From a virus (lineage: Duplodnaviria; Caudoviricetes): a stretch of 64,000 bases of DNA. Position numbers and translations under genes: made by a program. The DNA lies in the IMG/VR virus record IMGVR_UViG_3300020047_005985, positions 44,242-108,241 of that record; one strand, 5' to 3'. Positions 1 through 45,400 of this stretch are shown in pieces. Each line of letters opens with the position of its first letter. Positions within the stretch are counted from its first letter, which is position 1. The notes below the pieces were generated by a model. That model did no database searches. It had not been told where the DNA came from and saw nothing but the letters and a program-made list of their open reading frames with translations.

Positions 1-373
1 ACTTCAACATTGCTTTTAACTCATCTGCTGACATTGCTTCCAATTCAGCATCTTGTTTTCGAGCAATTAAATCCATAATTTTTTGATTGTGGATTTTATT
101 TGCAGCAGCAGCTTGAGTTTCTTCTTGTTCTTTGATACGAGTATCAAGAATAGATGTTACAATGGCAAGCCGCAATTCGTTTGCTTCTTGTTCTTTGGTC
201 TTACGACCAGCCTTACGACGAGTAGATTTACCATAACCTTCTATGGTTTCAGTTAATTGCTCTTCATGAGTAACTAACATATCGAGATTAATATCCCACA
301 ATTGTTCGCAGGAAATAACCCCTCCTAAATGAAAACGGAGTTTAAGCCGTGAGGCTAATTCAAATATATTCAT
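1..373 (-). CDS. Hypothetical coiled-coil phage protein (~124 aa, runs to window edge), downstream partner of the 721-aa protein
   Basis: Manually translated from the ATG at 373: MNIFELASRLKLRF...EQLWDINL...KIMDLIARKQDAELEAMSADELKAMLK. Missing from the ORF track because the stop lies at or after the edge. Confidence 0.75.
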   Translation of the reverse strand, partial: MNIFELASRLKLRFHLGGVISCEQLWDINLDMLVTHEEQLTETIEGYGKSTRRKAGRKTKEQEANELRLAIVTSILDTRIKEQEETQAAAANKIHNQKIMDLIARKQDAELEAMSADELKAMLK

Positions 374-374
374 T

Positions 375-2540
375 TTAAAATTTTATTTTAATTGTTCGTT
401 TATGACTACCTGATAACTTCAATATTAACTCCTCGGAAATAGTCGAATTAAAACCCAATCCACACAACTGTTTAGTTGCTGGTTCAAGTTTTGTAGTTTC
501 ACCTAATACTTCCATTACTTTACGATGTTCTAATAAATCAGAATTTAAGAACTCCGTATGAAATGAACGTAAAGCAATATCAGATTTACAATTATCAAGC
601 ATAAACATGTAATGTTTGTTGCCTGTATTATTATCACCCCAAAAGTTAGGAGATAAGCAAACCAAGTTGACTTTATGGAATTGATTGGTATCAAGATTCC
701 AAATCTTCGTAGAAGCAGATTGTGATTCTAAAATCTGACAATTATTTAAATCAGGAATAAATTCTACTTGTCCATTTTTACACAACAGTTTTCCCAATTC
801 AACTGTTCCTTTATGACTAGCCTTAACAAATAAAGATGTGATTTCCCCAAGTATTTCAACTTCAGCCGTAAAATCTGTTCGAACAGTCGGTCCACTATAA
901 TTATGAACAAACAATCTGTATTCACCATTTGGCATAACAGAAAGATTTGAATATGTCAAATTTTCTACACGTTTTTCAGGTGGAAAATGACCATCACATC
1001 CTTGAGCATCCAAATCCAACATTCCTGATGATGGTTGCATACTACGTCTATTACTATAGTAAATTTCATTACCATTAGGCTCTTTACAATGTAAGTCGTA
1101 ATCAGATGTTGTTTTTGGAAAGTGAATACTTACTCGAATAGGAGCTTCAATTTTACCACCTCGATCTTTAACAGCATCTTTAATCATACTTTTACCTGCA
1201 AGATTACCATTATAAGTCCAACCAAAATTGTTAGACCATTTAAATGCTTTCTTACTGTCAGGATTATTTGCCGTATGCAATGCTACTAAGTTACCACTAA
1301 ATCTATTTTCAAGAAAAGCTTCAATTGAAGCGCATGTTGGAAGAATATCCTTCATAAACTTTTCAATAGAAACTTCTTCAATACCATCAAATTGACTACG
1401 TTTATGTTGAGTAGATGTAGATGGTGCAACTTTATCAAATACAGATGCTTGTTTAATAGTATCTGTGCCTACATTTTGGTGAAGAATTTCTGAGATGTTA
1501 ATATCATCTAATGTAGAGAACCTACGATCAAATGATTCTTCGTATCCATTTTCTTCAACAAACTTTTTAGCTTCCGCAATTTGTTTTTGACTAATAGGAG
1601 CAGTAGCTTTCATGTAATTAGCAGGATCAACTCGCTTATTCCATGTAAGTACAGCCTTATTCAAATCTTCCCCCTGTGTTAATTCTACACAAAGAGTTCC
1701 AATTAATTCATTTCTAAATTTAGCAAATGGTAGATTGTTGGATTTAATCCAACACCAATTATCCTTCTCTTTAGTTGGTACATCTTTGTATTCAGTTGCA
1801 AACTCAATAAACTTTTTAAGCTTATCTAAGTATGAATCACCATTCAACAAACTACCTTGTTGAATCAAATCACGCACTAACACTAATGTATCCAATGAAA
1901 TTTCATCAAGACCTCTTTTGAATACATTTTTAGCATCACGATGATTACCTTGAATAGATTCAACTGAGTTACTAGAAAAATCTACAAACTTTTTAGGAAG
2001 TATAGCATTAAAATGATAAAATGTATATACTTGACCTGGAGTAACTACACCAAATTTGTCAGCTTCTTCCTGAGTATAAATTTTGTTGCTTTTTTCAAAG
2101 CCTAATTTATATTCAGCTTGAGTTTTATTTGTAGATTCATAATTTAATAGTCTATTGAGAGTATCGTATGATTCTACAAATACATTTTCAATTGGATTAT
2201 TCTTTAAAAGAAATGCTACATTGTTTGCAGGGCGAGAGTAAATATTATCAGACAGATCTACTGTATCAAACATTGTTACAATCTCACCATTGACTAAAGC
2301 TACAATGTTACCATAACGATGAATAAAATTCTTGTCATGATTACATGTATGTTCAGTAGAATTTGGATCTCTGAATACAGGATCAGCTTCTTTAGTGAAA
2401 CTTGAGATATACTTATCCCAAACTTCATGTCCAGAAATTTTAGATCTGAATAAAACAGGTTGTTCACACATAAATGCAAACTGCTGTTTAATTGCTTTGT
2501 TAAACTCTTGAAATTTCATATTTCGTTGACAGTACTGCAC
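375..2540 (-). CDS. Conserved large phage protein with a C-terminal YfaP/DUF2135-like domain (likely start 2519, MKFQEF)
   Basis: 721-aa ORF; motifs DYDLHCKEP..EIYYSN..GMLDLD..RVENL..GEY..FVHNYSG resemble DUF2135. Confidence 0.6.
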   Translation of the reverse strand: MQYCQRNMKFQEFNKAIKQQFAFMCEQPVLFRSKISGHEVWDKYISSFTKEADPVFRDPNSTEHTCNHDKNFIHRYGNIVALVNGEIVTMFDTVDLSDNIYSRPANNVAFLLKNNPIENVFVESYDTLNRLLNYESTNKTQAEYKLGFEKSNKIYTQEEADKFGVVTPGQVYTFYHFNAILPKKFVDFSSNSVESIQGNHRDAKNVFKRGLDEISLDTLVLVRDLIQQGSLLNGDSYLDKLKKFIEFATEYKDVPTKEKDNWCWIKSNNLPFAKFRNELIGTLCVELTQGEDLNKAVLTWNKRVDPANYMKATAPISQKQIAEAKKFVEENGYEESFDRRFSTLDDINISEILHQNVGTDTIKQASVFDKVAPSTSTQHKRSQFDGIEEVSIEKFMKDILPTCASIEAFLENRFSGNLVALHTANNPDSKKAFKWSNNFGWTYNGNLAGKSMIKDAVKDRGGKIEAPIRVSIHFPKTTSDYDLHCKEPNGNEIYYSNRRSMQPSSGMLDLDAQGCDGHFPPEKRVENLTYSNLSVMPNGEYRLFVHNYSGPTVRTDFTAEVEILGEITSLFVKASHKGTVELGKLLCKNGQVEFIPDLNNCQILESQSASTKIWNLDTNQFHKVNLVCLSPNFWGDNNTGNKHYMFMLDNCKSDIALRSFHTEFLNSDLLEHRKVMEVLGETTKLEPATKQLCGLGFNSTISEELILKLSGSHKRTIKIKF

Positions 2541-2611: not shown

Positions 2612-2684
2612 TCAGGATGGATTGACTCGAACAACCGACCTCTTGCGTCCAATGCAAGCTATCTACCAACTGATATACATCCTG
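2612..2684 (-). tRNA. trnP: tRNA-Pro(TGG), CCA not encoded
   Basis: Acceptor CAGGATG/CATCCTG, D arm TATC/GATA, anticodon stem CTTGC/GCAAG with loop AT-TGG-AC, T loop TTCGAGT. Confidence 0.9.
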
Positions 2685-2815: not shown

Positions 2816-2966
2816 TAAGGGCAACTGGACTTGAACCAATAACCTCTGTCTAGTTCGGCAACTCCGGCAGGACTCTAACCTGCAACCTTCAGACCTGAGC
2901 CTGACGCTCTAACAATTGAGCTACGGAGTCAATGACAGCGCTCTATCCAAATTGAGCTATACCCTT
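2816..2966 (-). tRNA. Outer tRNA of a nested pair; anticodon loop replaced by an 83-nt insert (2851-2933); identity undetermined
   Basis: Acceptor AAGGGTA/TGCCCTT-A, D arm GCTC-AATTTGGATA-GAGC, anticodon stem CTGTC/GACAG, T arm ATTGG-TTCAAGT-CCAGT. Confidence 0.85.
2859..2930 (-). tRNA. Inner atypical tRNA-like cloverleaf (pseudo-tRNA) inside the outer tRNA's anticodon loop
   Basis: Acceptor GACTCCG/CGGAGTT-G, D arm GCTC/GAGC (loop lacks GG), anticodon stem TCAGG/TCTGA with 6-nt loop CTCAGG, T arm GCAGG-TTAGAGT-CCTGC. Confidence 0.8.
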
Positions 2967-2970
2967 GTTT

Positions 2971-3053
2971 TCTTAATTAACTCCAGAGGATTTCTCCTAT
3001 CTTGCACCACACATAAAAGTGTACTCGTTACTACTGGATATCTTTAATTAAGA
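2971..3053 (-). ncRNA. Putative structured ncRNA between tRNAs
   Basis: 10-bp closing stem TCTTAATTAA/TTAATTAAGA, TCCAG/CTGGA stem, AGGA-GAAA-TCCT GNRA hairpin on the minus strand. Confidence 0.5.
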
Positions 3054-7547: not shown

Positions 7548-8243
7548 TTATTTTTGTTGTTTTCTAAAATATCCATTAGGGTTTACACCCATCTGAATAA
7601 GTCGTTCTTCAATAGTTCCTGTTACTGGAACTTGTTGAAGTATTTCTTCAATGGTACATTCTGTTCCAATTTGGTCAAGGATAATATCCTCGTGAGGATA
7701 TTCGTTATCTATTCTTTCAGGAATAGAAAACATCTTATCTGCACCTATAACGATAGATCCAGACGGCTCTTCAATTCCGCTAAGTGTTTCCAGCTTAAGG
7801 AATTTTGCTCTTCCTCTTGCTGGGATACGCAAGAAATACAATGTGACTGCATCTTCCGATGAACATACCAACTGCCAATAAACAGGTAAATCAAAGACTG
7901 GTTTGTTTTCTTGAAATTCTATTTGTGGTAGAATTTCGGTCAATCTTAACATTTCTTCATGGCTTACAAGCCGAAGAAAATTACCATTTGGGTTTGCAAA
8001 CCAATATTGCTGTAATGTAGTTACAAGTAAATTTCCTCCTGCTGTTAGATAGAACTTAGCTTTGTCCAATAGATATGCAAGATGCATTCTATTGAATGCT
8101 TCCCAGGTTTCACATTCTCTGGATGGATTTTTTTGAATAGTTCCATCAGTATTTACAGCGTAACATGTATATGTTACATGAGTGTCGGTTGTTTCTTGAA
8201 CGTAAGCATGGAGAATTTCATCTCCGAATTTTAGCTTGTACAT
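7548..8243 (-). CDS. Hypothetical protein
   Basis: 231-aa ORF. Confidence 0.7.
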   Translation of the reverse strand: MYKLKFGDEILHAYVQETTDTHVTYTCYAVNTDGTIQKNPSRECETWEAFNRMHLAYLLDKAKFYLTAGGNLLVTTLQQYWFANPNGNFLRLVSHEEMLRLTEILPQIEFQENKPVFDLPVYWQLVCSSEDAVTLYFLRIPARGRAKFLKLETLSGIEEPSGSIVIGADKMFSIPERIDNEYPHEDIILDQIGTECTIEEILQQVPVTGTIEERLIQMGVNPNGYFRKQQK

Positions 8244-8500
8244 AATACTTTTTATTTTTTGAATAATTGCCTACTCTTTTGAAGGATTTTTGGCATACTC
8301 CTTATAAACCCTCTGCACTCTGTTATAATCATCAATGATTTCATTCCTATCAATTAAGATGGTGTATTAATTTCAACTATAGATTATAACAGCTTACCAG
8401 GGACTAGTGGGAATTAGAGTTAATAGGCAAAACACCCAATAAGAGTGACAAATCCTATTTACCTGCACTTCCGCAAGTGGAGATATTTGTTGCGGTATTT

Positions 8501-25996: not shown

Positions 25997-27142
25997 ATGA
26001 AAAGTCACTCTATATTATTTGTTTCTCCAGTATTAAGGGCATCTTCTCAAGGAAGAGATTCTCAAACGTATAATTATATTGATCCTAAAACAAAGGAATT
26101 AAAGAAAGGAGAAAGAATGAATAAAACCAGGGAGTTTGGCACAGAAGTTGTGTTAAAATTCCTTATTGATTTTAATAAAAATAAATACGTAACGGGATTA
26201 GATGAGCTAATTCCTAATCCGTTTCTAGATCTTTCTGAAGAAGAAGTTAGGTCAACTTATAACCTAAGTTCTAAATGGACAGATCTGCTTCCAAAAATTA
26301 TAAAACAATCTCAAATTTCAAGGCAAACTTATTTTGAAATATTAGATAATGTTGATCCTGACTTTTATACATCAACTGTAAAAGGGCCAACAATGTTTAA
26401 TTTTCAACCTTATCAGTTACATGGCCCTGAAAAAGCAGAACCATCTTTTATATCCAGATTTTCTGTAGTGTTTTTTGATAGACCTAATCGTTTTACCGAT
26501 GAAACTCCTCGTCAAAGAATGGCAATGCAGTTAATTAAAAATCATCCAAGTATAGCTTTAAATAAAAGTTCAGCAAACCCTGCTGAACATCTTTTCTATA
26601 TTTCAGAAGAGAATGAAGCTGAAATGGAAAAAATGAGAAAACAAGATGTAATTGATGCTGCTAATTATTCTAAGTATAAACTTCAAACCGAGTCTCCTTA
26701 CTTTATGAATTATAAAGTAGCAAGTCTTTTAACTACACATCAAGGAACACCTTTGATTACTGGTGTATCAACTCCAGATCAGGTAAAACAAGCTATTAAT
26801 AATTTCATGAATGATAGACAATATCAAATGGAGAACATTGGTAAGTTTATGACGATAATGGATCTGTTAAAAACATCAGAAGGTAAACAACGATTTGAAA
26901 TCAAATACTTAGTTCGTCAAGCATTTAATGCAAGAGTTATGGAAAACTCTAATGGTTATATTGTTTGGAAATCTAGATCTGCTTCTAATAATGTTTACAA
27001 ATGGACTGATTATGAAAAATTGGTTTCGTTCTTAGTTTCAGACATGATTGTTTATGATCCAGAATCTACTGATACTTCAGTGACAAACTGGTATAATGAA
27101 TTATTTGAGGAAGTAAAAGCGAAAAACGTCTGGGTAGAATGA
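25997..27142 (+). CDS. Conserved virion protein downstream of MCP (crAss gene-75-like)
   Basis: Synteny; 381 aa. Confidence 0.55.
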   Translation: MKSHSILFVSPVLRASSQGRDSQTYNYIDPKTKELKKGERMNKTREFGTEVVLKFLIDFNKNKYVTGLDELIPNPFLDLSEEEVRSTYNLSSKWTDLLPKIIKQSQISRQTYFEILDNVDPDFYTSTVKGPTMFNFQPYQLHGPEKAEPSFISRFSVVFFDRPNRFTDETPRQRMAMQLIKNHPSIALNKSSANPAEHLFYISEENEAEMEKMRKQDVIDAANYSKYKLQTESPYFMNYKVASLLTTHQGTPLITGVSTPDQVKQAINNFMNDRQYQMENIGKFMTIMDLLKTSEGKQRFEIKYLVRQAFNARVMENSNGYIVWKSRSASNNVYKWTDYEKLVSFLVSDMIVYDPESTDTSVTNWYNELFEEVKAKNVWVE

Positions 27143-27867
27143 CAATAGAACGTCTTCATCAAGAAATTAAATTCCGATGGAATAAACTCAATTCTAATCA
27201 TAAGAAAGATTTACCTGGAGCTTATCTTGATGATGCTCTCAATAAAGCCACTGATGATTTTATTGAGATATTCTATTCTGGAAATAATTCAAAAGAATAT
27301 AAATTCGGTTTTGAGGTAATTCAACAAAGGATTGATATGCTACAAACTCTAGTAGTAGAGTTGCCTTATTCAGTAGCTAATTTAGATGTAAATAAATATG
27401 CTGCGGATATATCTTTATTTAATCCATCATATAGACATTTTCTTAGAGCATATGTTGTACCATTAGAGTGTACAGCTAAAAAGATACCTGTGACAATAAC
27501 ACGTTTAAACGATCTTGATGTAAAATTAACAGATGCTAATACTCAACCAAGTTTAACTTGGAACAGATGTTTAGGTTCAATTCAAGATAATAAGTTAGTT
27601 CTCTATACAAAAGAATATACAATAAACGAAATTATTGTAAACTATTTAAGAAATCCTGTTAAAGTTTTTTCAGGTGGGTATAATTCTTTAGAATATGAAA
27701 ATGGTGATTTAAGCGCATATCAATCTGGTAGTCCTACAGTTACATCAGATTTACCAGAATCATATCATGATCTTTTAGTAGATATGACTGTTCAATATAT
27801 CAGTCGTACACTAGAAGATAATAATAAATTTCAATTACAAAAAGAACAAATCATATCTAAAATATGA
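27139..27867 (+). CDS. Ring / head-tail connector protein
   Basis: GFE..QQRID.L..L, NYLRNP, SDLPESYHD.LVD.TV motifs. Confidence 0.7.
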   Translation: MTIERLHQEIKFRWNKLNSNHKKDLPGAYLDDALNKATDDFIEIFYSGNNSKEYKFGFEVIQQRIDMLQTLVVELPYSVANLDVNKYAADISLFNPSYRHFLRAYVVPLECTAKKIPVTITRLNDLDVKLTDANTQPSLTWNRCLGSIQDNKLVLYTKEYTINEIIVNYLRNPVKVFSGGYNSLEYENGDLSAYQSGSPTVTSDLPESYHDLLVDMTVQYISRTLEDNNKFQLQKEQIISKI

Positions 27868-38706: not shown

Positions 38707-39600
38707 ATGAATCAAGAATTAATTTCCTACTTGCAGGAAAAGCAAGAAAAAGGTGGATGGTTAGATATTGCCAACATCTTCAAAGTAGAAGGAACTCCAA
38801 AGCAAAAATCTGATTATGTCAGAAGGTTATGGAAGAAAGTTCATAAATATCAAGGTTCTTCTGAACCTTTTAAATTAAATGTTCCTCTTAAGGAGTCGGA
38901 CATTACAACACTTATTCGATTTGATAAACCAATATCATCAGATTCAAATTTTCAATATAACGAAAATAACGTTTTATTTATTGGAGATATTCATCTTCCA
39001 TTTGAAAAAGAAGGTTATTTGGAATTTTGTAAAAAGCAATATGATCGGTTTAACTGTAATAAGGTAATTTTTGCAGGTGATCTTCTAGACTTCCATGCTC
39101 AAAGTTTTCATGATTCAGATGCTGATGGTTTATCAGCAATTGAAGAATTGAATTTAGCTATTAAGAAATTACAGAAATGGTATTCTGTTTTTCCAGAAGC
39201 AACTATTCTTTTAGGTAATCATGATAGAATTGTAGCAAGAAAGCTATTTAAAGTTGGACTATCACAAAGATGGATGAAACCTTTAGAAGAAGTTTTAGAG
39301 GTTCCAAACTGGAGATTTGTTGAAGAGTTAATACATAATGATATTCTTTATGTACACGGAGAAGGTGGTACAGCTAGAACTAAAGCTAAACAAGAAATGG
39401 TATCGGTTTGTCAAGGACATTTACATTCTGAAGGATATATTGAGTTTATGAATGGAGGTAAAAACTTTGCACTTCAGGTTGGTTGTGGAATAGATTTTAG
39501 TTCTTATGCTTTTGCTTATGCTAAAAGAGATAAAAAACCAATTTTATCCTGTGCTGTTATTTTAGATAAATCACCAATTTTAATTCCATTTCATGATTGA
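38707..39600 (+). CDS. Calcineurin-like metallophosphoesterase
   Basis: GDIHLP, GDLLD, GNHD, HG, GHLH. Confidence 0.85.
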   Translation: MNQELISYLQEKQEKGGWLDIANIFKVEGTPKQKSDYVRRLWKKVHKYQGSSEPFKLNVPLKESDITTLIRFDKPISSDSNFQYNENNVLFIGDIHLPFEKEGYLEFCKKQYDRFNCNKVIFAGDLLDFHAQSFHDSDADGLSAIEELNLAIKKLQKWYSVFPEATILLGNHDRIVARKLFKVGLSQRWMKPLEEVLEVPNWRFVEELIHNDILYVHGEGGTARTKAKQEMVSVCQGHLHSEGYIEFMNGGKNFALQVGCGIDFSSYAFAYAKRDKKPILSCAVILDKSPILIPFHD

Positions 39601-40459
39601 GCTTCTACAAGAAAGATTTAAAGATATAACTTATAAAGATCAACATCACCAATACTTTTATGGTGAACAAGAACTTCAATCAATAACTAAATGGTTATCT
39701 AGTCTTAAGCCAGAGTTTAATAGTCATTTTTGGTCAATACTAAAAGCCTATACATATTCTGGATATGAAACTAAATTTATATGGAATAACTTTTCACAGT
39801 TTAAAATTATAGATCCTACGCTAGAATCGGGTTATACAACAGTATCTATTTATGATAATCACGATCATTTGAAAGTTACACCAGAAGATGTATTAGATCA
39901 GTGGAAAATAGAAAATTCTATTGGAACTACTAGAGGTAGTTTTATTCATAATTACTTAGAGAATTTAGAAAATAGAATCTTAGATCAACCTAAGATAGAA
40001 CTACCAAATAGTTTAAGTACTGCTCAAACCATAAACTATATTAACAGTTTAAATGTTGCTAAACAATTATGTTTAGATTTTGTAAAATACGCAAAAGAAA
40101 ATCTAATTTTAGTTGCAGCAGAATATGCAGTAGGTGACCCTAAGCTAGGGAAAGCTGGAAGATTTGATAGATTGTACTTTAATAAGTTAACTCAAAAGTA
40201 TGAGATCTGGGATTTTAAAACAGATAAGAAATTAAGATATAAATCTTCTTTTGGTAAAATTAAAGAATTTGATTTACCTGATTGTGAATTTGAAAAATAT
40301 TCTTTACAAACTTCTTTCTATCGAAAAGTAATTCAAGATGTAATTCCTGAATATCAATTAGGAGAAAGTAAGATTGTATGGTTTGATCTAAAAGAAAATA
40401 AATACGAAATAATTGAGTGTAAAGATTATACTCAATTAATAACTACAACATTACTATGA
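39593..40459 (+). CDS. PD-(D/E)xK nuclease
   Basis: RGSFIH..LE, AGRFDRL, IWDFKT, YSLQ.S.Y. Confidence 0.8.
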   Translation: MIELLQERFKDITYKDQHHQYFYGEQELQSITKWLSSLKPEFNSHFWSILKAYTYSGYETKFIWNNFSQFKIIDPTLESGYTTVSIYDNHDHLKVTPEDVLDQWKIENSIGTTRGSFIHNYLENLENRILDQPKIELPNSLSTAQTINYINSLNVAKQLCLDFVKYAKENLILVAAEYAVGDPKLGKAGRFDRLYFNKLTQKYEIWDFKTDKKLRYKSSFGKIKEFDLPDCEFEKYSLQTSFYRKVIQDVIPEYQLGESKIVWFDLKENKYEIIECKDYTQLITTTLL

Positions 40460-41136
40460 AAACCATAGGACAACATATATCAGCTATACGAGGATTAATT
40501 AAATCTTATGGTAGAAACCCAGAAGGTTATACGGACGAAGGTCTGTATAACCTTTTTTCTGTTTCTAGAGCTGACATTTTAAAACAACAATTTGAAAAAT
40601 TATCATTTTTATCAGAAGACAATTGGTTCCAATTTTGCATGTCGTTGGAAATAAGTAAATCACATAATTGCGATTGTGTTCCCGACCATTTAGAATGTAA
40701 AATATTAAAATCTAAATATAAAATTCCTTCTGTTATTGCTGGAATGAATAAATCTAAAATTAATATTGCTACTATTGCAGGTAAGCAAATTAATATTATT
40801 ACTGAAGCTGAGTGGAGAAGAAAGAAAGATAAAGAGCCTACAGAATATTATGGCAGTCTTATTAATTCTTATTTAATTATATGGAATGCACCTTTAACAT
40901 TAAAGGTTGTTTCTGTATCAGGAGTATGGTCAGATCCATTAAGTTTACAAACAATCCCTAACTGTGATCCTGATGGAAATTCTACAAATTTATGCTATGA
41001 TCCTCTTATAACATTATATCCTTTGCAAGAAGAGTATGCTCATAGAACTTATAAAAGAACACTGGAACTTTTAAATGTTCCAATGCAACTTCCTCAAGAT
41101 CAAACCAACGACAGTAATGAATTTGTTAAGGTCTAA
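40456..41136 (+). CDS. Tail ring protein
   Basis: Synteny; R.DILKQ, S...IP, GVW.DP, YPL, D..ND motifs. Confidence 0.6.
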   Translation: MKTIGQHISAIRGLIKSYGRNPEGYTDEGLYNLFSVSRADILKQQFEKLSFLSEDNWFQFCMSLEISKSHNCDCVPDHLECKILKSKYKIPSVIAGMNKSKINIATIAGKQINIITEAEWRRKKDKEPTEYYGSLINSYLIIWNAPLTLKVVSVSGVWSDPLSLQTIPNCDPDGNSTNLCYDPLITLYPLQEEYAHRTYKRTLELLNVPMQLPQDQTNDSNEFVKV

Positions 41137-41617
41137 GCGTAAAACACTTGTTCATATTTACTTAACATATAAATACAAAAAGAACATTCCTCATAAACTA
41201 GGAACTGTTCCTATGCCATTTATAAAGCATTCAGAGTGTACAGACCATAAATTATCTGCTGATTGGAACGAATGGAATACTGTAGTTACAGCATATATTG
41301 AAAAATTAAAGCTTTATTTAGAAGATGGTAATTCAATAATGTTGGAATCAGGATTAGGTGAATTTCATTTAGCTAAAGCAAAAGCTAAGAAATTTTTAGA
41401 TTTTAAAAAATCTAAAGAAAATAAAAAGCAGATTTACTTTGCCAAAAACAATGTTGATAATTATTTTATTACTTATTCTTGGGTTAGATGTAAATCTAAT
41501 AAAAAGTTTAAATGGTATTGGGCCATAAAACTTAATAGATTCTGGATAAGAGACATATATGCTGAATGTGAAAAAGACTTTACAAAAATTTACAAATTAA
41601 AAGATTCTCGTTTATGA
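41117..41617 (+). CDS. IHF-like basic protein of the tail module
   Basis: G..I.L..GLG.F...K...LDFKKSKE motif; synteny. Confidence 0.55.
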   Translation: MNLLRSKRKTLVHIYLTYKYKKNIPHKLGTVPMPFIKHSECTDHKLSADWNEWNTVVTAYIEKLKLYLEDGNSIMLESGLGEFHLAKAKAKKFLDFKKSKENKKQIYFAKNNVDNYFITYSWVRCKSNKKFKWYWAIKLNRFWIRDIYAECEKDFTKIYKLKDSRL

Positions 41618-42405
41618 AAAACTATATAAAATTACGAACAGTATTGGATAATATTCCTGCTTCTTTATTTGAAGAGGATACAGAAGCTTCTTTCTTGGAT
41701 CGCTTTATGGATGGATTAAAATTACTTCCAAACACTATTCAATACGAACCTAGAATAGAACTATTTGAAATTATTGATGGTAAAGTACAATTACCAAAAT
41801 ATGTTAAAAGTATAAATGCTATACATTGGCAAGCAACTAATCCTACTTCTTCTATGATTGAAGAATTAACTTGTGAAGCTGAACCTGCTGATATAAACCC
41901 TGCTGTATGTAAACCTTTATTAACATATCAAATGTGGTTAGATTCAGCTTTCTTTAAAGAAACATTTAAAGTTTTAAAGTATGTAGGAACAGACAAAAGT
42001 TTAATTAATAACGGCTGTGAATGTCTTTACGCAAATTGTAGTGAAACTTTTGTTATCACTCCTCAGAAAACAATGTACTTAAGTATTGATTCTGGTTGGA
42101 TATGTGTAAACTATGATTCTCCTGTTTGTGATGAAAATCAAGATATTTTGATTCCTGATAATCAATTGGTGATTGAATTTTTAGTTGCTTATGCAATAAG
42201 TAAACATTGGGAAAATAGGCAATTTACTAAAGAAAGTAATGCTTATAATTTTTACAATACATATAATCAAAAGCAAGCTTTGCTTTTGAGACAAGCTAGA
42301 GGATCTGTAATGTTAGCTCAAACTGATTTTGCAGACATTGCGAATTTAAATGCGCAATATACTAAACTTATGAAATTACCTGAAATTTTGTTCTATGCTA
42401 GATAA
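41614..42405 (+). CDS. Tail tubular / ring protein
   Basis: I.DGKVQLP, G.IC.NY...DE...LIPD motifs. Confidence 0.65.
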   Translation: MKNYIKLRTVLDNIPASLFEEDTEASFLDRFMDGLKLLPNTIQYEPRIELFEIIDGKVQLPKYVKSINAIHWQATNPTSSMIEELTCEAEPADINPAVCKPLLTYQMWLDSAFFKETFKVLKYVGTDKSLINNGCECLYANCSETFVITPQKTMYLSIDSGWICVNYDSPVCDENQDILIPDNQLVIEFLVAYAISKHWENRQFTKESNAYNFYNTYNQKQALLLRQARGSVMLAQTDFADIANLNAQYTKLMKLPEILFYAR

Positions 42406-45400
42406 ACAATTTCCCGTAGTTCATTCTAATGGAATTAATAAGGATAGATCATTTCAAGATAGTAATGATGTTACTTTTGCCTTGAATGCTATTAGAGATA
42501 ATCATGAAGGTGGAAGACAAGAATATCAGTCGGAACCAGGAAATGAATTATCTGCTAGTTTACCAACAGGGTATATTTTACTAGGTTCTATATATGGGCA
42601 AGATGAAGAAATTTATTTATTATCTACAAATAATGCTTCTTCTGAAATAGGATTATTCAAACAAGGTAGGTACCAAACTTTAGCTAATTTAAATTTAGGT
42701 TTTTCTACTGAACATCCACCAACAGGAGAATATAGAGTTAGAAATGGATGTGAAAGAATAATTTATTGGGGTGATAAACATAATCCAGATTATTGGTTTA
42801 ATGTTGATAAACCAAATGATTTTAAAACATCTGGAGTATTTGATGCAAATAAATTTAAGTTTGTTCCTAATATTCAATGTCCTAAAATAGATTTAATTCA
42901 AGTTAATTCTTCTGGTGGAAATCTTTCATTAGGCTCTTATTATTTTCAATTAGAAGTTGTTGATGTTGATGGCAATTCTATTTATAAAACAGACATTAGC
43001 CCTCAAACAATAATTTATGATGATGACCAAACTGATGCTTATAATAATATTGATGGAGGTTTAAATGCTCCTCAATATGATTCTGGTATTGGTGGTGTAC
43101 CAATTACTAATAAATCTATTACTTTAAGATTTTATAATCTAGATACTAGTTTTGATTACTTAAAGGTTAATGTTGTTAAGCAAATAGTTGGTACACAAGT
43201 TATAGAAGCTCATTCTGTAGGTCAATTAGTTCCTATTACAGGAACTGAATTTCAATGGACTTATACAGGTTATAATCCAAGTGGGGGAGATATTCCATTA
43301 GATTACTCTAGTCTTGTTATTCCTGATGTTAAATATAAAAAATCTTATGTTCAGGAACAAGTGCAAGGTAGATTAGTTAGAGCTAATGTAGAACAAGATA
43401 GAGTTGATTATTCTACTTATCAACGCTTCGCTAGTTTAATAACAGCTAAATGGGTAGCTAAGGAAGTAAAAACAGACGATCAGTTTGATTTAGGTAATCC
43501 TAAAAATCCTAATACTTATTGGGATTGTACTAGTTTTCAAGGAGATGAAGTTTATGCTTTTACTATTCAGTATCTTCTAAAAAACGGAGATTGGACTCCA
43601 TGTTTCCAATTAATAGGAAGACCTTCTGTTCCATCTGATTTAACTGTTTTAACAGTGGTTTCTAATGCTTCTGTTCTTGGTACTAATGATGTATGGGAAT
43701 CTGACGTAGAGCATCTTGGATTAACTATTGGTCAAACTGTTCCTAAATGGAAGGTGTTTAACACTGCTAGTATTACTACATCTAATACTGTTGCTCACCC
43801 ATATACATATGAAGGAGAATTTGGTTTTTATCAATCTGATAATACAACTTATCCTGACTTGTCTAATTGTGATGGCGATAATATCTTTGGAGAAGATTCT
43901 AATGGAACTCCTATTACAACTATTACGAAACTACGATTCTTTAGATTTCCAGACAGAAGGTTAATACCTCACGTAACTGGAACTAATGGAGAATACATTC
44001 AACCGTTAGGTGTTAAATTTGATAATATAACTTATCCATCTACTGATGTAGTAGGTCATAGGTTTTGCCATGCTGTAAGAGATGCTGCAAATAAAACTGT
44101 AGTTGATTCTGGATGGGCATGCCAACCATCAATAATTGTAACAGGTGTTGGTAACAGATTATACTTGGACGCGAACTTCACAGATTTTGATTTAGTATCT
44201 ACAAATGGGTATGTGAGATATAATTCGGCAAACATATTATATAATCAGAAATTATTTAATCCTGATTATATTAAGCTGAATCAAGCTTACCATATAGAAT
44301 CTTCTCCGGATTCGGAAGAAACAATAGTTACTAAAACTGGAGGAACAGATACTATTACAGCTTATTCTTACATTTTTAATATAACGGATATTGCTTTACC
44401 TACCAGATCAAATTATTTAGTATCAAATCAAATTTATGTTCCCGCAAATTCTTATACTCCAGCGTCACTATTTGACATGCCAATTCAATCAGCAGATGAT
44501 TCTGTTGATGACAGTATAATTAAGATTGGATCTTATCCTTTAGAAGATGCTAGCACATTATTAGCAGGGAATGTTCTTGGTGGTGCTAATGTTACTGATC
44601 CTGTAACTGGAACACTAGAGTATAATTCGTTTTATGTTTACAAAAAAGTCAATATTCAGCCATACGAAAATATTTTAAATTTAAATTATAATTACATCCA
44701 TTTTAATCATGCTGTAATAGCAGACGATAATGAATTTTATGGAGGCGATACAATAATTAGTTTAAATACACAAACTCGTACATTTTGGCCGTTGTTTACT
44801 CCGGATAATATTTTACAAGGATTATGTTATACAACATTTTATGAAGAGCACGATATAAATACTTCTTTGAGACATGGGGGTACAGGTGAGGCAACAAAAT
44901 ATTACGGCCCTGGTTCTGATATTGCAGTCTTGTTGGAAAAGTTTGCGGAATTGGAATCTGATGGAAAATATACCATCAGACCCACGAACGAAATAATTAA
45001 AGATTATTTTGCAATAAATAAAGACTATGATGTTCAATCTACTGAAGTAGGTAAAGTAAGTTTACCACTTAACTATGATTACTGTACAGACTGTTTAGCA
45101 GAATATCCAAATAGAATTATATTTAGCCCTCAATCATTTGAAGAAGAATCGTTTGATCTATATCGAATTAATAAGATAAATGATTATATAGATCTTCCTG
45201 CACATAGAGGAGCTATCACTGGTTTAAAATATCAGAACAATCAACTTCTGGTTCATACCGAAGATACTACATTTATTTTACAACCTAATCCTCAACAGAT
45301 TGCAACAGATCAAAATACTGCTTATTTAACTACTGGAGATTTCTTAAGTATTCCTCCTCAAGAATTAATGCAGACAGACGTTGGTATGGGTGGTTTGCAA

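Follow-up and report, generated by a model that had tools for sequence, protein, structure and literature searches.

The locus analysed here raises the question of what is encoded by a phage gene in which a complete tRNA-like cloverleaf is inserted into the anticodon loop of a second tRNA. The gene lies in a window of 64,000 nt (the whole stretch of DNA that was analysed), which comprises bases 44,242-108,241 of a complete genome of 108,241 bp with terminal repeats. This source genome (G000; G000 coordinates count along the full genome and not along the window) belongs to a crAss-like phage, encodes a Crassvirales-type capsid protein and has Cellulophaga phage phi14:2 as its nearest GenBank phage by GroEL (28%). 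A tRNA-encoding intron had been noted in the tRNA-Thr(UGU) of Lak megaphages, with neither a mechanism nor a family being described (Devoto et al., 2019; PMC6784885), so that the nested layout itself, which the original prediction took to be undescribed, has one descriptive precedent. For the conserved family presented below as type II and its link to a protein pair no description was found in the literature searched, in which the topics nested tRNA, tRNA-like intron and DUF8224 gave the Lak paper only.

Genomic Setting of the Nested Gene

The tRNA cluster on the minus strand is arranged in the order tRNA-Phe, tRNA-Lys, nested gene and Pro-like gene, followed by ORFs encoding proteins of 721 and 123 amino acids (Table 1). 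The Pro-like gene might possibly represent a second, single-body mimic of the same module.

Table 1. Features of the nested gene and of the adjoining module (window coordinates).
Feature	Position	Strand	Remarks
Nested double-tRNA gene, type II	2816..2966	-	151 nt through outer discriminator A73; outer CCA not encoded
Outer tRNA 5' half	2931..2966	-	Acceptor 5' strand, D arm (G18 G19), anticodon stem 5' strand, loop AUU
Inner cloverleaf, 72 nt	2859..2930	-	U19-A56 elbow pair, 6-nt non-decoding anticodon loop, discriminator G73
CCG after inner discriminator	2856..2858	-	CCA in 23/25 homologues; RCC motif (pairs with RNase P RNA) kept
Outer tRNA 3' half	2816..2855	-	Loop AACUA (A35, C36), anticodon stem 3' strand, variable loop, T arm, acceptor 3' strand, A73
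721-aa protein, PHROG 1735 / DUF8224 (PF26675)	375..2540	-	TerD-like domain at residues 466-600; candidate RNA partner
123-aa helical-hairpin protein	2..373	-	Adjoins DUF8224 gene in nearly all loci examined
tRNA-Pro(UGG)-like gene	2612..2684	-	Atypical loop (A32, A37, C38); between nested RNA and DUF8224 gene

An 83-nt element with a perfect 10-bp terminal stem is located between the tRNA-Lys gene and the nested gene (window 2971-3053, minus strand). In the part of the same cluster at G000 39,000-44,240 (L315:2998-8240), odd anticodon arms are found in further tRNA-like genes, namely one with a 9-nt loop, a weak Ser(ACU)-like one and one with a long arm. A match to the Rfam DUF805b motif at window positions 8268-8303 (minus strand) reached 42.4 bits, which is over the gathering score. 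Further products of G000, some encoded within the window and some outside it, are a PARP-domain protein, a GNAT acetyltransferase, GroEL and an AAA_33 kinase (7,855-8,187), as well as two metallophosphoesterases and endonucleases of the GIY-YIG and LAGLIDADG types.

Structure of the Nested Gene

The sequence and coordinates given in the original prediction for both outer halves, the inner cloverleaf and the CCG were borne out, and every stem of the outer and the inner body pairs, as it had stated. Rfam scored the inner part as a tRNA with 57.6 bits, and ARAGORN with introns allowed read the outer part as a tRNA interrupted by a 76-nt intron. The minimum-energy fold (z -2.2) retains the inner cloverleaf together with the acceptor stems of both bodies and the anticodon stem of the outer one. 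Since minimum-energy folds recovered both acceptor stems in only 16 of the 25 type II members, the structural case leans on covariation more than on folding energy. None of the 16-mers of the nested gene is repeated elsewhere in the source genome, which rules out a chimera built from tRNAs of the phage itself. That it was joined artificially during assembly has a practically negligible probability, as homologues come from independent samples and cultured isolates and no part is duplicated in the source genome.

Neither body is able to decode in the normal way, as had been proposed: the anticodon loop counts 6 nt in the inner tRNA and 83 nt in the outer tRNA (8 nt after excision). The view that the inner tRNA, with the T loop TTAGAGT, has lost the D-loop GG had to be revised, because its GU and UUAGAGU amount to a U19-A56 swap for the G19-C56 elbow pair. 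No Rfam intron model matched the gene, with a library that did find a group I intron in L011, and the junction forms an asymmetric internal loop; the insert is thus neither a group I nor a group II intron and shows no bulge-helix-bulge motif, which agrees with the first description of the locus. Group I introns occur in bacterial tRNA anticodon loops and have the site of insertion in common with the window's insert, which differs in being 75 nt long, tRNA-shaped and without a ribozyme core. The introns of archaeal and eukaryotic tRNAs are short, protein-processed inserts of the anticodon loop, located at a bulge-helix-bulge or at 37/38 and handled by EndA/TSEN and RtcB. In contrast, the window's gene belongs to a bacterial virus in which no RtcB was found, and its junctions carry RNase P-type signals instead of a bulge-helix-bulge.

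Two Classes of Nested tRNA Genes

IMG/VR, metagenomes and GTDB were screened with patterns that were loose in sequence and described nested D arms or nested T arms, and the matches were parsed by base pairing. A total of 121 distinct nested parses at 172 places was obtained, two parses being false. Relatives of the neighbouring 721-aa protein led to L006, a second nested gene that differs in sequence. The exact junction pattern of the window's gene had no match in IMG/VR, and a BLAST search of GenBank phages with the window's copy gave single-tRNA matches only.

The larger class, type I, comprises 97 genes with a CCA-ended insert that begins with an acceptor stem, extends as far as the CCA and whose removal restores the exact canonical 7-nt anticodon loop (Y32, U33, R37). 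The outer tRNAs are of the isotypes Lys-UUU (37), Ile-UAU (19), Asn-GUU (12), Arg-UCU (10), Thr-UGU (8) and others. The inserts measure 44-87 nt, are placed after position 32, 34, 35 or 36 and are shrunken in many genes, unlike the inner body of type II, which remains a full cloverleaf. A match to Rnl1 or Rnl2 was present in 19 of 19 near-complete type I genomes, with 13 above the family cut-off (a raw count, not set against a baseline), and RtcB was found in none of the near-complete type I genomes tested. RNase P products carry 3'-OH and 5'-phosphate ends, which RtcB is unable to join; the ATP-dependent ligases of the type I carriers fit this end chemistry and RtcB does not. Judged from the sequences, religation into a working tRNA would fit the type I inserts.

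Type II, to which the window's gene belongs, consists of 25 distinct genes (two near-duplicate pairs included) and the later-found L174. It differs from type I in that neither body decodes, both are full cloverleaves, the genes are tied to DUF8224 and co-occurrence does not require a ligase. The closest relative of the window's copy is L160 with 74% identity, and the remaining members share 47-65%. One type II gene, located at NC_021788 143200-143347 in phi4:1, is 100% identical in the cultured Cellulophaga phages phi4:1 and phi17:2; the annotation of phi4:1 covers only its inner part and labels it tRNA-Ile. The chance that the arrangement was confined to a single genome, which had been reckoned with originally, is countered by the occurrence of type II in many genomes and in cultured isolates. 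Type I and, by the description of the paper, the Lak intron share with the window's gene a tRNA-shaped sequence in the anticodon loop of a phage tRNA gene, and the window's insert, a 72-nt cloverleaf plus CCG, likewise has a CCA-type end. In type I, however, a canonical tRNA remains after removal of the insert, which itself has often degenerated. The phage tRNA introns of the Lak kind, regarded as "enigmatic", are hereby split into a spliceable class with ATP-dependent ligases and a non-spliceable class.

Conservation and Drift within Type II

In the type II alignment 94.9% of the cells are paired and 35 of the 44 pairs change on both sides, whereas none of 500 shuffles reached the observed level and slid controls gave 31-45%. 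The elbow pair 19:56 of the inner body is G-C in 17, U-A in three and A-U in two cases, and two outer bodies of type II have U-A; where positions 19 and 56 of phage tRNAs are both occupied by A or U, 35 of 35 pairs are Watson-Crick. Because the pairs covary and the elbow changes are compensated, the folded type II RNA is under selection, and the proposal of selection on structure, made from the single gene, is thereby supported. The D arms are near-invariant across type II, a conservation which is biased by the search patterns, as these demanded a TAGCTCA-type D arm. Free-standing phage tRNAs (L316-L354) often have A19-U56 or U19-A56 in place of G19-C56, compensated every time.

The inner anticodon loops of type II differ in length and sequence. 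Removal of the insert leaves outer loops of 4-11 nt, none of which is canonical among the 25 homologues and in which neither U33 nor purine 37 is conserved; in the window's gene the result is the 8-nt loop AUU|AACUA with A32 and U37. Mismatches at the pair 1:72 occur in nine of the 25 genes. Retained outer bases are A35 (17/22), C36 (14/22) and A73 (24/25), and both L006 and L174 have a 7-nt loop with UAC after excision. As read from this alignment, both cloverleaves and both elbows are under selection and both anticodon loops are free to drift. A quadruplet-decoding tRNA making use of the 8-nt loop was ruled out, because loop size is not conserved.

The retained A35, C36 and A73 hint at a Val/Ile-type ancestor; loop bases kept in a few members suggest an outer tRNA of possible Val and an inner tRNA of possible Ile descent. 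A nearest-neighbour search for the ancestral isotype gave a mixed result, and no canonical insert-free orthologue of the window's outer tRNA was identified in the relatives examined. Single-body genes with enlarged loops are found at the module in L005 and L019.

The drift of the loops is what would be expected of a neutral relic, i.e., of a one-time insertion of a tRNA into a tRNA by recombination or by ligation plus reverse transcription, which hitchhikes and decays. Both anticodon loops are degenerate, L068 is without the outer 3' half, and fusions between a full tRNA and a tRNA half occur at many phage loci. Such decay is at odds with stems that remain almost fully paired through compensatory changes, including those of a tertiary pair, while the loops drift, and with the 100% identity between phi4:1 and phi17:2. 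The covariation seen in the aligned sequences largely refutes a relic, which we regard as very improbable.

Processing Signals and Ligases

The inner body of type II has a purine at position 73 in all 25 genes and CC in 24, and a CCA is encoded for the inner body in 23 of 25 genes vs. eight of 25 for the outer one. The further member L174 has U73. Position -1 of the inner body is U where 73 is G (9) and C or A where 73 is A (16), and is never Watson-Crick; among free tRNAs with A73, 68% carry U at -1. In the window's gene the final U of the outer 5'-half loop AUU is position -1 of the inner tRNA, which gives U/G at -1/73, vs. C/A in the closest relative L160. The RCC motif pairs with RNase P RNA, and stronger -1/73 pairing promotes miscleavage (PMC10465520). 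With its U19-A56 elbow, GCC and U-1/G73, the window's inner tRNA has the sequence features of an RNase P substrate. From these features we infer that RNase P may cut at +1 of the inner body; in an alternative reading, the -1/73 pattern would reflect a conserved wobble-like pair that lengthens the helix.

The original prediction had considered excision by RNase P and subsequent religation. The resemblance to an RNase P substrate speaks for the first step, whereas religation to a working tRNA is unsupported in view of an 8-nt loop in the window and 4-11 nt in the family. An RtcB-type ligase, which had been suggested for the joining, is missing from the source genome and from 24 of 24 near-complete carrier genomes (search control positive in 10 of 14 genomes), and the ends left by RNase P are unsuited to it. 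In the source genome an Rnl2/Rnl5-like ligase is encoded beyond the limits of the window (G000 26,238-27,530); no match to it was obtained in 12 other type II records in a search run without positive control. In four of six complete type II carriers, phi4:1 among them, none of Rnl1, Rnl2 and RtcB was detected. The two outer halves cofold at -26.5 kcal/mol. A scan for promoters and terminators gave results at chance level.

The ligase of the source genome is one of the observations that would agree with a type I-like intron, in which RNase P and 3' processing excise the inner body and an ATP-dependent ligase seals the outer halves to a Val-type tRNA (8-nt loop, 7-nt after trimming). The exact canonical loops of the 97 type I genes and the Rnl1/Rnl2 matches in their genomes provide the analogy, and the UAC loops of L006 and L174 as well as the retention of A35, C36 and A73 point in the same direction. 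We nevertheless consider an intron of this kind decidedly unlikely, as the variable outer loops without conserved U33 and purine 37, the 1:72 mismatches, the four complete carriers without detectable ligase and an inner body that remains a full cloverleaf, where many type I inserts shrink, stand against it.

Association with the DUF8224 Protein Pair

PHROG 1735 is present in 11 of 12 type II vs. one of 24 type I virus records; the single type II record without it is a 19% fragment, and about nine of the 12 records are independent. At the level of loci, a DUF8224 gene was found on the same locus and strand in 20 of 25 type II vs. one of 91 type I loci of similar length, mostly together with the small helical partner, counts which include related, non-independent genomes, so that the strength of the association is exaggerated by Fisher p-values. 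Three of the five type II loci without DUF8224 are contigs of less than 2.7 kb. In loci with a G+C content of 31-63%, the RNA is positioned upstream of the large gene, between both genes or downstream. Its carriers fall in both deep halves of the DUF8224 protein tree (a quick search without bootstrap, in which L086 and L136 are labelled non-carriers though they are carriers). There is a weak correlation between the identities of the RNAs and those of the proteins (Mantel rho 0.28, p 0.004). The RNA accompanies the protein pair on one and the same strand and in several gene orders. This linkage to a DUF8224 gene and its small partner was not picked up in the original prediction and is new here.

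The DUF8224 protein was found in 530 GenBank phage records. Of the loci reached through the protein, one of 58 carried the nested RNA, as did none of five GenBank records tested. DUF8224 proteins therefore do not need the nested RNA, since most carriers of the protein are without it. In several genomes free of nested RNA, single tRNA-like genes with 8-16-nt loops stand beside the protein pair, and many type II loci have one too. Such single genes with U1, A73 and loops of 8-12 nt were recorded in DUF8224 genomes at L005:6113-6192, L452:1501-1576, L445:1501-1606, L004:5869-5944 and L017:5913-5987; for the gene of L445 a loop of about 40 nt with a hairpin was noted. The single genes at these positions may represent the nested RNA in reduced form.

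The structural model of the DUF8224 protein is confident (pLDDT 87), and its TerD-like domain at residues 466-600 was recognised with Z 11.0 and rmsd 2.8 over 128 aligned residues in a fold search that covered mainly residues 465-600. No match was found in PDB sequences or in the Pfam copy searched, nor a usable Atlas match for residues 1-345, and no RNA-binding or nuclease domain was recognised in the protein. The best folds for the small protein are ribosomal helical hairpins (Z about 8.5), which may be generic. In phi4:1, the candidate partner proteins of the RNA are gp180 (YP_008240768) and gp193 (YP_008240781).

The wide distribution of the proteins without the RNA would be in line with a functional stand-alone double-tRNA mimic or processing substrate that shares an early host-takeover cassette with the protein pair but has no physical partnership with it. 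The distance from RNA to gene is about 24 kb in L392 and 4.5 kb in phi4:1, and the source genome has several further tRNA-like genes, as a shared cassette would allow. Plain co-carriage would, however, be expected to decay, whereas adjacency has been kept through at least three gene orders, 31-63% G+C and 28-77% protein identity, and the type I nested tRNAs are without such a link. A mere sharing of the cassette is therefore a serious but rather unlikely explanation.

Proposed Function of the Type II RNA

A conserved nested RNA beside two unstudied protein genes points to an undescribed RNA-protein system. Among known systems, bacterial and phage YrlA is a non-decoding tRNA mimic encoded within few kb of a Ro60/TROVE gene and on the same strand (PMC4201824). 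The type II RNA resembles it in its tRNA-like fold, its conserved elbow and its location near its protein on the same strand, and by analogy may work like YrlA-Ro60. It differs from YrlA, which consists of one tRNA-like domain and a Ro-binding stem, in having two complete nested cloverleaves. A TROVE domain was detected in none of 13 carrier records (control positive in two of 14), 54 DUF8224 proteins gave no Pfam TROVE match, and the window's gene has no Rfam match to Y RNA. Altered anticodon loops in genes of tRNA clusters are also a feature of phage tRNAs that evade or replace the targets of anticodon nucleases (PMC10264068, PMC11555353), and the isotypes Lys-UUU, Ile-UAU, Asn-GUU, Arg-UCU and Thr-UGU prevail among the outer tRNAs of type I. 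The tRNAs that evade or replace nuclease targets still decode, whereas the window's RNA cannot.

The explanation that we favour, with about even confidence, is that type II encodes a non-decoding double-tRNA mimic, which is trimmed and probably nicked by the host RNase P, is not religated and works together with the DUF8224 pair. The nested gene would be transcribed together with the tRNA cluster and the outer 5' end would be trimmed by host RNase P, a cut at the inner +1 being probable too. Processing of the 3' side past the inner CCA may free a CCA-ended inner mimic, and the outer tRNA may remain as a nicked molecule of 36- and 40-nt halves that are still paired; the halves would not be rejoined into a decoding tRNA. 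Intact or nicked, the product would be bound or used by DUF8224 and the small protein. Its likeliest purpose would be to occupy or neutralise host defence or translation factors that recognise tRNA, and the double-tRNA mimic is perhaps a counter-defence decoy, an idea already put forward in the original prediction. The family probably goes back to a tRNA-shaped intron of type I that interrupted a Val/Ile-type tRNA and was later repurposed.

A more far-reaching version is possible, though we put it at somewhat less than even: the two-elbowed RNA, or the nicked tRNA plus the mimic freed by RNase P, would be the dedicated ligand or guide of the DUF8224 pair in a new phage RNP system that counters tRNA-targeting immunity or reroutes translation. 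If this holds true, a tRNA-shaped intron would have been converted to a structural non-coding RNA. Type II represents a conserved phage RNA family overlooked by standard annotation and gives a first functional lead for DUF8224, which is unstudied despite its occurrence in about 530 GenBank phage records. The cultured pair of phi4:1 and Cellulophaga baltica makes the proposed function directly testable.

Further Nested Arrangements

In L230, L232, L223 and L068, free-standing look-alikes of the outer tRNA (loop CCGATAA) and/or of the inner tRNA (loop TTCATAA) lie 100-280 nt upstream of the nested gene. Within type I, the inserts of L061, L167, L312, L166, L270, L264, L177, L071, L261, L144 and L211 still resemble decoding tRNAs with a normal anticodon. 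The combinations include Asn-GUU in Lys-UUU, Phe-GAA in Arg-UCU or Lys-UUU, and His, Gly or Asp in Asn-GUU; these nested genes may either provide two tRNAs each or contain recent insertions. The gut-phage loci L216, L229, L208, L224, L149, L163, L276 and L277 carry two to three different tRNAs, each of which holds its own tRNA-shaped insert. A third kind of nesting, with a complete tRNA placed on a short hairpin within the anticodon loop of another tRNA, was seen in CPR-type bins and metagenome contigs (L137, L138, L180, L204, L234, L246, L252, and L253). At L385:3995 (minus strand), the halves of a Lys-UUU-like outer tRNA are about 1.15 kb apart, and a full tRNA-Lys starts the insert.
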